Assembly (NCBI GenBank): GCA_964016885.1
Contig: OZ024742.1
Span: 133,610,001-133,674,000, forward strand
Reading direction: 5' to 3'
Origin: Eledone cirrhosa
Taxonomy: Eukaryota
Length of the DNA stretch: 64,000 bases
In this document: positions 5,718 to 60,630 of the stretch, piece by piece
How positions within the stretch are numbered: position 1 is the stretch's first letter
Layout: the number at the start of each line of letters is the position of its first letter
Notes under the pieces: model-generated
Database searches by the model: none
What the model saw: only the letters and a program-made list of their open reading frames with translations
What the model was told of the DNA's origin: nothing
Program-made: the position numbers and the translations under genes

Positions 5718-6552
5718 GATATATACAATATGTTGAAAAGGTAACACACCAGAGAGAGTTACAGTGCGCTATCAATAAAACAGGGGAAAACCACCAGCGT
5801 ATGGAATCTATAACCTATGAAAGGCAGAGTAGACACACGATAATTAAAAATATAAATTAAAGTGTAAATACATACCTCTATAACTATATAACACACATAC
5901 AAATCCAAAGAGATCTGTTTAGCTAGTAAGTTGTTGACAGAAATGAAATAACCCATAGTTCATCAGCGTTTGTAAGTCAGATAACTCTAAGAGAATTTAA
6001 AGCGACCGTCCAGCTACATGCGGGAAAGAGAAGTCACAGCGTGTTTAAGGGCAGTGAACCGGTGGCCTCTGAGAGGCGAGCTGCTAGAAAGGGCAGCCCA
6101 AAACCACTGAGAGTAGTGTGCTCAATCAAACAGAGCGAGAGGAAATACTGTTATAAGGATCGAAATATCAAGATAAATTAACGGAGCCATAGACTCTCGT
6201 CGTTCCCTGTAAGTAATGTGCTCAAAGGAGAGGAAATCCTGAGATCTGTAAAATACAATATGTTGAAAAGGTAAAGCACTAAAGAGAAATACAGTGCGCT
6301 TTCAATAAAACAGGGAAAACCACCATTGTATGGAATCTATAAGCTATGAAAGGCAGAGTAGACCCACGATAATTAAAAATATAAATTAAAGTGTAAATAC
6401 ATACCCTGTTTTATTGATAGCGCTCTATCTCTCTCTAGTGGGTTACCTTTTCAACATATTGTATTTTAAAGAGCTCAGGATTCCTTCTCCTTTGAGCACA
6501 TTATTGGCAGGGAATAACGAGAGTCTATGGATCCGTTAATTTATCGTGATAT
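5718..6552 (-). mobile_element. Non-coding PLE-like unit with direct and inverted terminal repeats
   Basis: 5723-5876 repeats at 6253-6405 (offset 530). 6405-6552 is the reverse complement of about 6165-6313. Both ends lie in (TA)n. Confidence 0.8.
5895..5977 (-). ncRNA. Degenerate hammerhead ribozyme
   Basis: Minus strand acttacaaacg-CTGATGA-acta...tagc-TAAA (GAAA mutated)-CAGATCTC-TT-tggatttgtatgt. Confidence 0.55.
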
Positions 6553-6619
6553 ATAATATATATGTATATATATATATATATAGAGAGAGAGTTATGTAAT
6601 ACACAACATAAGGTAATTA

Positions 6620-6680
6620 TTTCATTTACCAGTGGTTTCTTGAAAGCAAACAAAATTTGCTTTCAATCATCAGAATGAAA
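6620..6680 (-). ncRNA. Type I hammerhead ribozyme, core intact
   Basis: tttcatt-CTGATGA-ttgaaagcaaa/tttgctttcaa-GAAA-CCACTGG-TA-aatgaaa. Confidence 0.9.
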
Positions 6681-6785
6681 AAATCCTGGTGTATTTATTG
6701 ACATTGGATTTTAATACACATATACATACATACATACATACATATATATATATATAGTTATGTAATAAACAACATGAGGCAATTA

Positions 6786-6844
6786 TTCCATTTACCAGTG
6801 GTTTCTTAAAAGCAAAAGATTTTGCTTTCAATCCTCAGAAGGAA
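6786..6844 (-). ncRNA. Type I hammerhead ribozyme, second tandem copy
   Basis: ttcctt-CTGAGGA-stem II-GAAA-CCACTGG-TA-aatggaa. Confidence 0.85.
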
Positions 6845-56377: not shown

Positions 56378-57000
56378 GTAACACAACAGTTAGTTCACCA
56401 TACCGAGAACAATTGTTTCACCTTAGCGGATCCTCAGCTCGTAATGGCTATACGGAATAGGAAGGATACCCGTATGAACGCGCATGCGCAGAAACGGTCA
56501 CTTCACCCAGGCAATCCAAAACTGCGGGCGAAAGGTGTAAGGGAGATAACTGCGAAAGTCCGAAAAGTAGCACTAGTTGATATGAAAATTAGGATGTTGT
56601 TGTTATTCAATCCGTAGCTTTGTAGTTATGTGAGAGAGGGGTTGTTCCAGACATGTGGAAAATATGTGAAGAATTCATTTATTGAGTTTAGGCAATCGCT
56701 ATTGCGTAATCTCCTTAGAATATTTATCGGTTCATAAAATAATCGATAAGACAAATTGCCCCTCGCGTACGGCTTGGACTTAGTGATGGCTTTCCATTGT
56801 ATGGAGTAGTCTATAATTGAGTCATTGATGGACCATACGTCCAGTTTCGTATTGCTTGGGTGAAGTGACCGTTTCTGCGCATGCGTATTCATACTGTTGT
56901 CCTTTCTATTCCGTATACCCATAACCATTACGAGCTGAAGATCCGCTAAGCTGAAAAGCAATTGTTCTCGGTATGGTGGAACTAACTGTTGTGTTACAAC
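56378..57000 (-). mobile_element. PLE 3' end: GIY-YIG C-terminal fragment between inverted HHR repeats
   Basis: 56378-56525 is inverted relative to 56841-56996. HHRs at 56404-56441 (-, cgag-CTGAGGA...GAAA-CAATTG-TT-ctcg) and 56931-56970 (+). The spacer translates VWSINDSIIDYSIQWKAITKSKPY...CLNSINEF. Confidence 0.85.
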
Positions 57001-57462
57001 CTCTCTCTCTCTATATATATATACAAATATAAATTAGCGAGAATCGTATTTCGGCCTAGGAATTAACGAAAAACAACTTCCGAGATGTGTGGCAAGTGCT
57101 CGATGATTTAGATGAATCAGAGCTACAACATACGTTAAAGGCCAAACACACTGAGACGATAGTTAAACTAACATCCGCACAGCCAAAGAAACGACCAAGT
57201 AATTCGGGTCAAACAATAAACATATATGTGATTGAAAATTTACCCGGACCCCTGGAAGGTTGGTATTTGGGTTTCTGCGACTCCTAAATCAAGTACTGTC
57301 CGCTTACATAAACAATGTTAGGCTTCTGGTAAGATGATTGAACAAGGAAGCCACTTTATCAACAGGTTTTTGTTCAATTGCTAATTCAAAGTGTGACTAT
57401 TCCTGACTCCACGTGGAGTTCAGCAAGGGAGGCAACACTTATTTTAGGAGAATGAATTCAGT

Positions 57463-58690
57463 AGATAGAACTGGTCATTCCTTATGGTCAACCTCGATGT
57501 AATATTTTGGAGAGCACTAACGTAATGCAACTCACCCGTCTTTGTTTGTGTAGTTGGTGGTGCGAGTACGGAGTTAATTATTATAAAATAACAGGAGGCT
57601 GGACTGGTGTAAATCGTTGAAAGGTTTATTATACTATGATCATTTCAATGACTGGGTTCAGTATGAATCCGGTGACATTATCACCTAATTCAAAATATAA
57701 CAAAGGATTATAACATGAAATCCATGGAGCTGAACATCAGCGACAAGAGGACGACCGACTATTTAGCAGCTTCTACCTCTGTCGGCCGCCCTCAAGTTTT
57801 GATTATTAATCTACTTATGACCATCTGGTGAGGCTTGCAATGTGCTACACTTCACCGTCAACGAGAAATGTCAGCGTTGAGGTCATGCCTCAATCAGGCT
57901 GATCATGCGTGCTAGAAATTGCCGCGAAAATTGTTTTTTCCAAAGAACATATATCTTCAACAAAGACATATAAAGTGGGCGTCTGTATGGTATAATGTGT
58001 GGACAGAAATTTCGGTTAACAATTAGAAAAGTTAAACTTATGTTTAGAGTTATAAGATGAAATTAGAAAAATAAGGTTTAAGGTTGGGTTGTGAGATTTA
58101 GTTAAATAATTTACAGAAGGAGGCTTTTATGAAAAAGTTTAAGTGTATTATAGATAGTCACGATCAATTTTCAGGGTAGGATATATAGTAAAGAGTAAGC
58201 CCTTGCTTAGCGGTCAATAACCAGCGATGACTGCAGACTCTCGGTCAGCCCTCCCTAACCATGTGCCAGCCGTTCCGTGTAATATCGTCTAGTGAAAGAA
58301 ATGTAACTATCATAGGCGTCGGGTGTGTAAGCGGGAAGTCCGGTTCCGCCAGCTGCCCATCGTATATACCAAATGATTGCTAGTTATTCACACAGGAGCG
58401 GGATTTAGTTACGTGCTAGTAGAGGGAGGCATGATACAGCTAATAGTTATGATTAAGCCTAGAATTTAAAGGTACTATTTGGCGGTCAAAGCCGGTCATT
58501 GAAATGATCATAGTATAATAAACCTTTCAAAGATTTACACCAGTCCAGCCTCCTGTTATTCTATAATAATTAACTCCGTACTCGCACCACCAACTACACA
58601 AACGAAGACGGGTGATTTTCATTACGTTGAGTGTCTCCATAATATTACATCGAGGTTTACCATAGGGAATGACCAGTTCTATCCAGTGGT
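57463..58690 (-). mobile_element. Family C copy, antisense, with inverted terminal segment
   Basis: 57463-57656 is inverted relative to 58492-58684. Degenerate HHR at about 57631-57685. Confidence 0.85.
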
Positions 58691-59459
58691 AAACCAAGAA
58701 ACCTAAATAAATAATGCTCCAGAAATATCGAGCGCTTTCAGATGTAATAATGAAGAGCAGCACTGACTCTAGTGTACAGCTATCGCCAGCATGGGACTAA
58801 TAATCTACACACCATTCGGATGTTGGCTGCTTTGAGCTTTGTCTACCGCCCACCTGGTCCACTGCTGCTTCCCTGTCGGGAATATTCAGACTCCGGCAGA
58901 CCTCATAGATGCCTCAAAACATTCTACGTATTCTAACATAACTTGTATTGTTTTGACTGAATTCTCTATCCTATACTTCAGGGCCGTTGTGATTCACATT
59001 GAATATTAAGAGTCGAACATACACTCGGTATCACCTGATACCGATGCTTTACTTCCATCCTCTATATCTATATGTATAACCCGGTATTATCGAACTGCAC
59101 CTTGATCTATATTGTATTTCCCCTGTGTTTTGATTTCTTCGATGTGTTCTTATATACTTCCGTTTTACTCCATGCATCACCACCCTAGTTATGACTGCAT
59201 TTTATTTATGTAATTTTATTTATGTATTTAGCTTATTATTCCTTTTAATTATGTTTTTATTTACTCGCTTTACTCTCATAATATACTTATCATTGTGCTC
59301 ATTAACAGACAACCCTAGAATATTACTCTCTGTACCCTTATATCTGTTTATCTTTATTCACTCCCTCTACCCACCCAAGAACCACACTATATATAACCCG
59401 GACTAACTGGGAACTAAATATAGTCTACGCATTACATCGGGTTTTCCCTCTTCCAACTT

Positions 59460-60630
59460 CACATTACAGGTGTGAATAAATAATAATCGTTTGGTAACAC
59501 GTGATGATCTGACGGATGTGGCCGCTTTCCCGACTGCACGCCAGGCGCTTGGGTAGATCAGCCTTCCTTGAGTGCTTGGAAAAATAAAATTTCCCCTTCT
59601 TACGGTAAACGAAATTACTCGGAATGGCTGCTTCGCCGTGGGGCCCTGTCGGGCTTGGAACCCGCCGCGCCGCCGGCTATCGCCACCAAATAGTACCTTT
59701 AAATTCTAGGCTTAATCATACCTATTAGCTGGATCATGCCTCCCTCTACTAGCAAGTAACTAAATCCCCCTCATGTGTGAATAACTAGTAATCGTTTGGC
59801 ATGTAGGATGGCCAGCCGGCGGTGGCGGACTTCCAGCTTACAGACCAGACGCCTATGACATATACATTCCTGGAGTGCTCGGAAAAATCAATTCCTATTT
59901 CTTTCGCTAGACGATATTACACGGAACGGCTGGGACGTGGTTAGGGAGGGCTGGCCAAGGGTCTGCAGTCGTCGCTGGTTATTGACCGCTAAGCAAGGGC
60001 TTAATCTTTACTATATATCCTACCCTGAAAATTTATCGTGACTATCTATAATACACTTAAACTGATTCATATAAGCCTCCTTCTGTAAATTCTTTAACTA
60101 ACTCTCACAACCCAAACCTTAAACCTTATTTTTCTAATTTCATCTTATAATTCTAAACAAGTTTAACGTTTCTAATTGTTAACCGAAATTTCTATCCACA
60201 CATTATACCATACAGACGCCCACTATATATGTCTTTTTTGAAGATATATGTTCTTTTGAAAAAAAAAACAATTTTCGCGGCAATTTCTAGCAAACATGAT
60301 CAGCCTGATTGAGGCATGATCTCAACGATGACATTTCTCTTTGACAGAGAGGTAGTAGCACATTATAAGCTTGCGCCCCCTCACCAGATGTTCATAAGCA
60401 GACTTAATAATGAACACTTTAGGGCGGCCGACAGAGGTAGAAGCTGCTAAATGGTCGGTCGCCCTCTTGTCGCTGATGTTCAGCTCCATTGATTTTATCT
60501 GTTATATTCCTTTGTTATATTTTGAATTACCTGATGATGTCACCGGATTCCTACTGAACCCGGTCATTGAAATGATCATAGTATAATAAACCTTTCAATG
60601 ATTTACACCAGTCCAGCCTTCTGTTAATTT
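59460..60630 (+). mobile_element. Family C copy, sense, with intact HHR (60528-60583)
   Basis: 59682-60630 is the reverse complement of about 57585-58485. tac-CTGATGA-tgtcaccggattc/gaacccggtcat-t-GAAA-TGATCA-TA-gta. Confidence 0.88.

Follow-up and report, generated by a model that had tools for sequence, protein, structure and literature searches.

The avocado sunblotch viroid offers a case of the double hammerhead. In viroid-like RNAs, an unstable helix III is stabilised when two copies of the ribozyme pair within a multimeric RNA (PMC4209133). The dimer design is already published for metazoan type I hammerhead ribozymes (HHRs), for those of Penelope-like elements (PLEs) and for those of retrozymes (Cervera & de la Peña 2014, 2020). 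Most metazoan type I HHRs have a helix III of 1–2 bp with a palindromic loop of 2–4 nt, so that cleavage of the monomer is blocked and an active dimer is possible (PMC4209133); the same model is presented in a review, according to which a tandem layout might aid dimerisation of adjacent ribozymes (PMC6765202). Here we analyse a 64,000-nt stretch of the Eledone cirrhosa genome (assembly GCA_964016885.1, contig OZ024742.1, positions 133,610,001 to 133,674,000 of the forward strand), referred to below as the window. An initial annotation, made from its letters, had noted that stem III is self-complementary in what it took to be unrelated hammerhead families, and had read this as pointing to dimeric cleavage.

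In PLEs, minimal HHRs fill the pseudo long terminal repeats (pseudo-LTRs), with opposite-strand pairs 100–700 bp apart (PMC4209133). The elements themselves are described as 5′-truncated, with an inverted truncated copy next to them, (TA)n as their target and a hammerhead close to the 3′ end (PMC8557442), and a preprint derives retrozymes from Penelope pseudo-LTRs (Li, Clavereau & Pollet 2026, 10.64898/2026.07.22.740005).

The motifs that we found resemble the minimal type I HHRs with palindromic helix III of Penelope pseudo-LTRs (PMC4209133; Lünse, Weinberg & Breaker, via PMC6765202) in several respects: they are type I, with a long helix II and a helix I of 4–8 bp; of helix III only a few self-complementary nucleotides are left; an association with reverse transcriptase (RT) and GIY-YIG domains is seen, here for family 2 and N4; and massive numbers of solitary copies occur together with opposite-strand pairs at the spacing just given. 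They differ in that the only family found directly beside a Penelope open reading frame (ORF) has a non-palindromic stem III (AGAACT), that the palindromic families of the window are non-coding elements of about 0.2–2.1 kb, that the stems are longer (8–10 nt) than in the minimal "no helix III" form, and that in one family wobble-only forms such as AUAUGUAU prevail. Newt and axolotl satellite hammerheads (Forster et al. 1988, via PMC4209133) and animal non-LTR retrozymes (PMC7229834) share with a retrozyme-like superfamily of our wider sample a one-bp helix III with a palindromic tetraloop (ACUAGU or ACGCGU here) and an arrangement in direct tandem units, whereas the window contains only a truncated head-to-head relic of that superfamily, at 15789–15907. 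Viroid-like RNAs, finally, are replicating circular RNAs, while the copies described here are genomic retroelement insertions, mostly solitary.

Our analysis makes it likely that the window carries type I hammerhead motifs near the 3′ ends of PLEs and, probably, of their non-coding derivatives, with a short self-complementary helix III that is predicted to pair two copies into a double hammerhead. Window families are designated A to H, N1, N2 and N4 (Table 1).

Self-complementarity of helix III

The window has a G+C content of 34%, in a 3.0-Gb genome assembled in 1,796 contigs, and is packed with interspersed repeats and (TA)n/(CA)n microsatellites. At 12 sites CTGANGA is followed, no more than 110 nt downstream, by GAA and a palindrome of 6, 8 or 10 nt; in 200 Markov shuffles such sites numbered 0.29 on average and 3 at most. 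For a wider census, eleven 100-kb stretches from ten contigs were added to the window (1.264 Mb in total) and searched with a descriptor that considers the core, helix II, an A···T closing pair, a non-G cleavage-site base and helix I, and ignores the interior of stem III. This returned 158 HHR candidates, against 4–9 in each of five shuffles, so that some 4–9 false positives per 1.26 Mb are to be reckoned with; conversely, the descriptor missed family E and two of the three family A copies of the window. The A15.1–U16.1 pair and the non-G cleavage-site base, being demanded by the descriptor, are present in all 158.

A perfect stem III palindrome was found in 78 of the 158 candidates, and in 97 when G·U pairs were allowed, while shuffles gave 0–1. 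We grouped the candidates into 37 superfamilies, with 54 subfamilies. Of the superfamilies, 15 have a perfect palindrome as their modal stem III, and 18 have a modal stem that is self-complementary once wobbles are counted. Enrichment over chance, which the initial annotation had itself named as a point on which its idea could fail, was thus confirmed by the window and census shuffles alike, and the self-complementarity is located, far above chance, at helix III of hammerhead motifs. The palindromic pattern is real and strong but limited to about half of the families.

Covariation was examined across families on one representative per combination of superfamily and stem III, for the 22 such units with an 8-nt stem (self-pairs 1–8, 2–7, 3–6 and 4–5). 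Of 64 cells, 90.6% were paired, as compared to 68.6% in 500 shuffles, none of which came as high, and 16–52% in slid controls, and both sides had changed in 18 cells versus 6.3 expected. At the innermost pair, formed by adjacent bases, we counted AU 6, UG 3, GC 2, UA 2, CG 1 and other 2. Asymmetries comprised four G·U or U·G cells and one C–A cell, a difference that is not significant.

A second alignment covered superfamily 0, comprising window families B, C1 and C2 and their relatives (27 distinct rows). Here 96.5% of 567 cells were paired, a value reached by none of 500 shuffles. Helix II showed both-side changes at eight of nine pairs (93.4% of cells paired), and helix I had 98.6% of its cells paired, with mostly one-sided changes. 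In stem III, the pair 59–62 is AU in 16 rows and GC in 11, and the central pair 60–61 is CG in 10, UG in 10 and UA in 7. In both data sets, therefore, the covariation check suggested for the palindromes came out positive, central adjacent bases included.

Because adjacent bases are unable to pair within one strand, complementarity at the centre needs either a second copy of the strand or a palindrome at the DNA level. Pairing of helix III between copies is supported by these sequence comparisons. The alternative, a DNA palindrome serving as the binding or cutting site of a dimeric protein, or arising as a by-product of head-to-head insertion, would account for perfect DNA palindromes in so many candidates and for the frequent arrangement of the elements as inverted repeats. 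We nevertheless judge it very improbable: the palindrome always lies between GAAA and the cleavage-site base, inside the individual copies, away from the inverted-repeat junction, and while free to vary in sequence it retains its symmetry. Moreover, some stems III are self-complementary through wobbles only (AUAUGUAU, ACGAUUGU, AUCCCAUGGGGU and ACUUCCGGGGGU), and such U·G forms, symmetric as RNA only, are modal in large families, AUAUGUAU being the modal form of a family with about 5,900 copies. The existence of these forms favours symmetry at the RNA level.

Two further features of the alignments may be recorded. In superfamily 9, three members (L119:4264, L112:3680 and L120:4858) have the stems III ACCATGGT, ATCCCATGGGGT and ACTTCCGGGGGT, all self-complementary with G·U, a compact case of change in both length and sequence of stem III with pairing retained. 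Across superfamily 0, a near-invariant C at the fourth position of helix II (columns 21/50; 38945 and 38974 in a family B copy) stands opposite C or U, and looks like a conserved mismatch or bulge within a covarying helix. The helix II pairs of this superfamily start immediately beside the core, unlike those of N4, family 2 and family D, where by eye we saw an unpaired nucleotide between A9 and helix II.

Folding of one copy or two

When two copies were cofolded, a double-hammerhead topology resulted, with a predicted intermolecular helix III of 8 bp for family B and 10 bp for family E. Self-duplex energies calculated with ViennaRNA for self-complementary stems of 6–8 nt ranged from −2.2 (AUAUGUAU) and −3.2 (AUAUAUAU) to −10.5 kcal/mol (AUGCGCAU); this range leaves out AGAACU, AUGUUCAU and ACCACUGGU.

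By contrast, ViennaRNA predicted a monomer hairpin for none of the 6–8-nt stems III. This bears on the possibility that the motifs act as monomers, with a stem III of 1–2 bp and a small loop held by loop–loop contacts or by protein, palindromy being incidental or inherited. The central adjacent bases, which would form the loop of such a monomer, remain complementary through changes on both sides. By base-composition arithmetic, a random tetraloop is self-complementary with a frequency of ~0.06–0.08, and yet perfect palindromes make up 22 of the 44 short even-length units (28 with G·U allowed). Family A does have a canonical short helix II that could form loop–loop contacts, and several of the points gathered below also speak for monomers; all in all, we find this explanation unlikely.

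Pairing between two copies would then proceed as follows. Two hammerheads are predicted to join through one extended helix III; the RNAs would cleave, and cleavage would require both copies. One source of the second copy could be a tandem unit, the layout of the retrozyme-like ACTAGT/ACGCGT arrays. For solitary or inverted copies, the partner might come from a second transcript, or pairing might be aided by the element's own protein. The non-coding families A–E would presumably be mobilised by Penelope-type enzymes.

The arrangement of the copies limits the role of tandems. Among same-superfamily neighbours within 5 kb we counted 25 divergent, 18 direct and 2 convergent pairs. Thirteen of the 18 direct pairs belong to superfamily 1, which is retrozyme-like (ACTAGT/ACGCGT), with pairs at 310–960 bp and periods of 310 and ~420–516 bp. 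Superfamily 0 contributes 12 divergent, 2 convergent and 4 direct pairs, every one of the latter joining unlike stems III, and the first 100 genomic copies of family D include 21 divergent pairs and no direct one (hand count). The families of the window lack the direct-tandem layout of animal non-LTR retrozymes, being solitary or head-to-head inverted; two N1 copies, at 6673 and 6838, are direct and 165 bp apart. The initial annotation had suggested selection for cleavage only in tandem transcripts, essentially the tandem-aided dimerisation already discussed in PMC6765202. This does not fit a superfamily 0 devoid of same-stem direct pairs, or direct tandems typical only of the ACTAGT/ACGCGT superfamily. 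A transcript running across a divergent pair would carry one sense and one antisense hammerhead and would hence fold back on itself.

Most copies of the families with 6,000–23,000 copies are solitary or inverted, so the partner hammerhead could be sought in another transcript. If RNA-level selection acted on helix III self-pairing (G·U allowed) with such a partner, cleavage would track transcript concentration and could serve as a copy-number-sensing brake or a processing step, and cross-reaction would be expected between families with a common palindrome (ACAAUUGU, AUAUAUAU). Duplexes of A and U only have a low predicted stability, at the −3.2 and −2.2 kcal/mol given above, so that pairing of separate transcripts looks marginal without help. 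We give this scenario only a slim chance.

The weak AU-only duplexes also count against the double hammerhead that we favour, and they are not alone in this. The modal stem III is not self-complementary in 19 of the 37 superfamilies (triloop hairpins, long hairpins, odd lengths and decayed singletons). The non-palindromic families N1 and N2 are predicted to form ordinary monomer hammerheads, the minimum-energy fold of N1 being canonical. Few independent evolutionary events lie behind the covariation. A family D subfamily with the broken palindrome TGTTCAT, which would leave two central U·U mismatches in a dimer, accounts for 11 of the first 100 copies (hand count) and has spread nonetheless. 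Family D being non-coding, its link to a Penelope enzyme is drawn from architecture. From the literature, most invertebrate retrozyme hammerheads self-cleave efficiently without dimers (PMC7229834), and one Penelope-element hammerhead cleaved only with added protein and was dispensable for insertion in vitro (PMC11167929). While minimal HHRs with a palindromic stem III had been assumed at the outset to cleave efficiently as dimers, PMC4209133 gives low activity for Penelope-element dimer constructs.

Rfam, too, stands on the negative side, as its hammerhead models match none of the copies searched. At the gathering score, no family at all, hammerhead included, matched the window, and no hammerhead matched in 150 kb holding 61 candidates; in 2.8 kb with seven candidates, the hammerhead models stayed unmatched at E ≤ 10. 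Nor was a hammerhead present among the 150 of 282 weak matches listed for the window, where the microRNA-like entries trace to (TA)n/(CA)n microsatellite hairpins. Minimal hammerheads are reported to evade standard descriptors (PMC4209133).

Host elements and motifs of the window

ORFs of the sample carry RVT_1 and GIY-YIG domains, the combination found in PLEs, and hammerheads of family 2 lie ~195 nt downstream of two such ORFs. (Their non-palindromic stem III was taken as AGAACT by analogy with shorter copies; the descriptor sometimes assigned 28 nt instead.) In the window, an ORF remnant preceding the N4 motif is 58.7% identical over 288 aa to a GIY-YIG-bearing ORF of the sample (tblastn). 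It was missed by Pfam, which matched none of the 22 window ORFs of at least 120 aa. The RT and GIY-YIG context was thus seen for family 2 and N4, and tblastn with the sample ORFs found no homology to Penelope ORFs in families A, B, C and E of the window, whose putative link to PLEs draws on their (TA)n ends, 5′ truncation and head-to-head pairs.

In the palindromic families of the window, 60–250 nt separate the hammerhead from the 3′ end, which is bordered by (TA)n, and 5′ truncation is variable. Most copies in the window are dead insertions. The supposition that the families are unrelated is not supported: B and C belong to one alignable superfamily, and all share a single PLE architecture. 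In the sample block C5 93585–95532 (L050), two Penelope-like ORF copies stand head to head with a 5′ boundary shared within 2 bp.

Family D is non-coding and ~2.1 kb long, with the homology of 12 copies ending ~2.1 kb upstream of the 3′ end and no Penelope ORF inside. Its autonomous partner was not identified: Penelope ORF matches near three of the 12 copies lie outside the shared region. We found at least 5,747 exact-flank genomic copies; here and for families B and C2 below, copy numbers are lower bounds from matches with exact flanks of 22–24 nt, and stem III spectra come from the first 100 copies. Written as RNA, the family D stem III is AUGAUCAU. Copies with TGTTCAT include both members of one divergent pair, whose two arms thus seem to derive from one template.

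BLAST mapping of the families, together with inspection of both strands around each site named in the initial annotation, gave ~24 hammerhead-family copies in the window. The palindromes listed in that annotation are all present, 0–107 nt from the positions given (mostly the start of the hammerhead and not the palindrome), although several are without a canonical hammerhead. They stand directly 3′ of the GAAA of type I HHR cores and, at the canonical sites, begin at its last A. ACAATTGT is at 9642, 39652 and 56409, with four further occurrences (14981, 40834, 48439 and 49090) outside any hammerhead context. ATGCGCAT is at 38981, with an inverted twin at 36641 that had not been listed, and an unrelated occurrence at 62139. 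ATGATCAT is at 48120 and 60572, with decayed copies at 57636 (−) and 58504. ACCGATCGGT is at 36402, ACTAATTAGT at 9261, ATGTACAT at 56105 and the 18-mer at 40140. ATATATAT occurs 1124 times in the window owing to (TA)n microsatellites, the relevant sites being 46819 and 1729.

A canonical CTGANGA…GAAA core with helices I and II accompanies the palindromes at 9642 (−), 56409 (−), 36641 (−), 38981 (+), 48120 (+), 60572 (+), 36402 (−), 46819 (+), 42019 (−) and 42233 (+). By family, the core CUGANGA…GAAA is present in A, B, C1, C2, D, E, N1, N2, N4 and the 43170 copy, and absent in F, G, H and the decayed copies at 9261 and 57690. Most of the listed sites are accordingly canonical hammerheads; those at 39652, 56105 and 1729 are non-canonical, the one at 9261 is decayed, and the 18-nt site is no hammerhead, its core-like word reading CTGAGAA in 31 of 33 copies and helix II being absent (context read by eye). 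At the cleavage site most families have A; those with ACAATTGT have U. Also present in the window are hammerhead families that had not been listed and have a non-palindromic stem III: ACCACTGGT, ACCTCTGGT, the long hairpin at 43170, and ATATGTAT.

Table 1. Hammerheads, related motifs and host-element remnants in the window
Feature	Positions	Strand	Details
Family H copy	1711..1740	+	core CTGATAG, then GAAATATATAT
PLE ORF remnant (4212–5075) and family N4 hammerhead-like motif	4212..5450	+	core at 5385, ~245 nt past ORF end
Family N1 hammerheads, four copies	6602..6698, 6768..6863, 8038..8125, 8646..8741	−, −, −, +	helix II 12 bp; non-palindromic stem III ACCACTGGT (3 bp + triloop)
ACTAATTAGT hammerhead family, decayed copy	9178..9297	+	ATAA in place of GAAA
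Family A hammerhead, canonical type I style	9616..9672	−	short helix II; core CTGAAGA at 9670; stem III ACAATTGT (9642–9649)
Family N2 hammerhead	16662..16769	−	non-palindromic stem III ACCTCTGGT; helix I 10 bp
Family E hammerhead-like motif	36385..36477	−	core CTGATGA at 36471; stem III ACCGATCGGT (36402–36411); helix I 4 of 5 pairs
Family B head-to-head inverted pair	36593..39035		arms 36593–37487 and 38147–39035, 896 bp, 98.5% identity (self-BLAST); hammerhead at each outer end
Family B type I hammerhead	36615..36719	−	core CTGATGA from 36694; stem III ATGCGCAT (36641–36648); cleavage-site base A; helix I 8 bp
Family B type I hammerhead	38910..39014	+	core at 38935; stem III ATGCGCAT (38981–38988)
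Family G hammerhead-like motif	39542..39672	+	core CCGATGA (C at position 4); ~85-nt helix II insert; stem III ACAATTGT (39652–39659)
Family F repeat	40070..40165	+	18-nt palindrome ACGGCTGAGCTCAGCCGT (40140–40157); core-like word CTGAGAA
Family C1 hammerhead	41974..42088	−	core at 42061; stem III ATATATAT (at 42019)
Family C1 hammerhead	42171..42266	+	core at 42196; stem III ATATATAT (at 42233); divergent pair with 42061 copy
Hammerhead with long-hairpin stem III	43145..43264	+	stem III ATAGTCTTTTAAGACTAT
Family C1 hammerhead	46541..46654	−	core at 46629; stem III decayed to ATATATAA
Family C1 hammerhead	46761..46855	+	core at 46786; stem III ATATATAT (46819–46826)
Family C2 hammerhead	47051..47149	−	core at 47124; stem III ATATGTAT
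Family C2 hammerhead	47242..47340	+	core at 47267; stem III ATATGTAT; divergent pair with 47124 copy
Family D hammerhead	48054..48153	+	core at 48079; stem III ATGATCAT (48120–48127); helix I 4 bp
Family H motif	56087..56115	+	non-canonical core CTGATAC, then GAAATGTACAT
Family A hammerhead	56382..56447	−	core CTGAGGA at 56437; stem III ACAATTGT (56409–56416)
Family A copy	56910..56993	+	inverted partner of 56437 copy; 2-nt insertion ahead of stem III (GAAAAGCAATTGT)
Family D copy, mutated core	57610..57707	−	core GGTGATA; ATGATCAT retained at 57636; inverted partner of 59897–60645 copy
Family D copy, 5′-truncated	58489..58573	+	begins within helix II; ATGATCAT at 58504
Family D hammerhead	60508..60605	+	core at 60531; stem III ATGATCAT (60572–60579)

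Family B has at least 23,323 exact-flank copies in the genome, with TGCGCAT in 92 of the first 100. The CpG in ATGCGCAT being intact in these 92, recent spread or weak CpG decay is suggested. Family C2 numbers at least 5,920 copies (TATGTAT in 92 of the first 100); its stem III is no DNA palindrome and is self-complementary as RNA through U·G wobbles only. For family E, the first 664 kb of the sample yielded no second copy, and the window motif fails the stem-III-blind descriptor.

Among the families with altered cores, G has 535 genomic copies, of which 96 of the first 100 carry the non-canonical CCGATGA (39549–39555 in the window copy) and two the canonical CTGATGA; decay of CpG to TpG would create, not destroy, a canonical core here. 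Family H has CTGATAC or CTGATAG in all 18 genomic matches, and ATGTACAT in just one of 28 genomic copies, the modal form being ATATGTAT (19 of 28). For the ACTAATTAGT family, three intact relatives in the sample read CTGATGA…GAAACTAATTAGT.

The relic at 15789–15907 consists of two head-to-head copies of a ACAGTTCTAGTCCTGT-type hammerhead repeat, both truncated within the ribozyme and missing the CTGANGA core. A near-perfect 90-nt hairpin at 46663–46752, which gave sub-threshold matches to microRNA families, proved to be the junction of two head-to-head, 5′-truncated family C copies rather than a gene for a microRNA. Elsewhere in the sample, L004:4272–7526 (−) holds ORF fragments with a Helitron-like N-terminal domain and a PIF1 helicase, probably an unrelated Helitron remnant. 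In three sequencing runs of one study, a fraction of 0.40–0.45 of the query words was present; these runs look like low-coverage DNA.

Palindromes shared between families

The initial annotation had gone on to propose that each family has its own palindrome, which might work as a password by which a hammerhead pairs only with copies of its own family. Several palindromes are indeed in use (the 14 units with a perfect 8-nt palindrome have 8 different words, and the sample as a whole contains 15 different perfect palindromes), and unlike palindromes cannot build a full duplex together. With 64 possible 8-mers of this form, however, mostly different palindromes are to be expected even without selection. 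In the sample, ACAATTGT is common to four sequence-unrelated superfamilies, besides window families A and G, and ATATATAT is likewise common to four superfamilies. The 14 units contain 12 coincident pairs, as against 1.4 expected for uniform and 3.4 for AT-rich palindromes (P = 3e-5 and 0.004, respectively). Sharing above chance is the opposite of what a private code, or avoidance, would produce; it may in part reflect old common ancestry. Moreover, AUAUAUAU and AUAUGUAU coexist within single subfamilies. We therefore regard a private palindrome for each family as highly improbable. A full-text literature search returned no paper testing or stating the password idea, and the sharing of palindromes may already be visible in those figures of PMC4209133 that list helix III per family.

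Neither of the potentially novel ideas is thus supported, be it a pairing code private to each family or selection for tandem transcripts in these families. What the window and the sample provide is a published ribozyme design seen in an independent genome at very large copy number. Since the Rfam models miss all these motifs, such genomes should be annotated with descriptors for which helix III is optional. Our data also make a modest addition: complementarity at the adjacent central bases, and through U·G, favours pairing of two RNAs over a monomer hairpin or a DNA palindrome.

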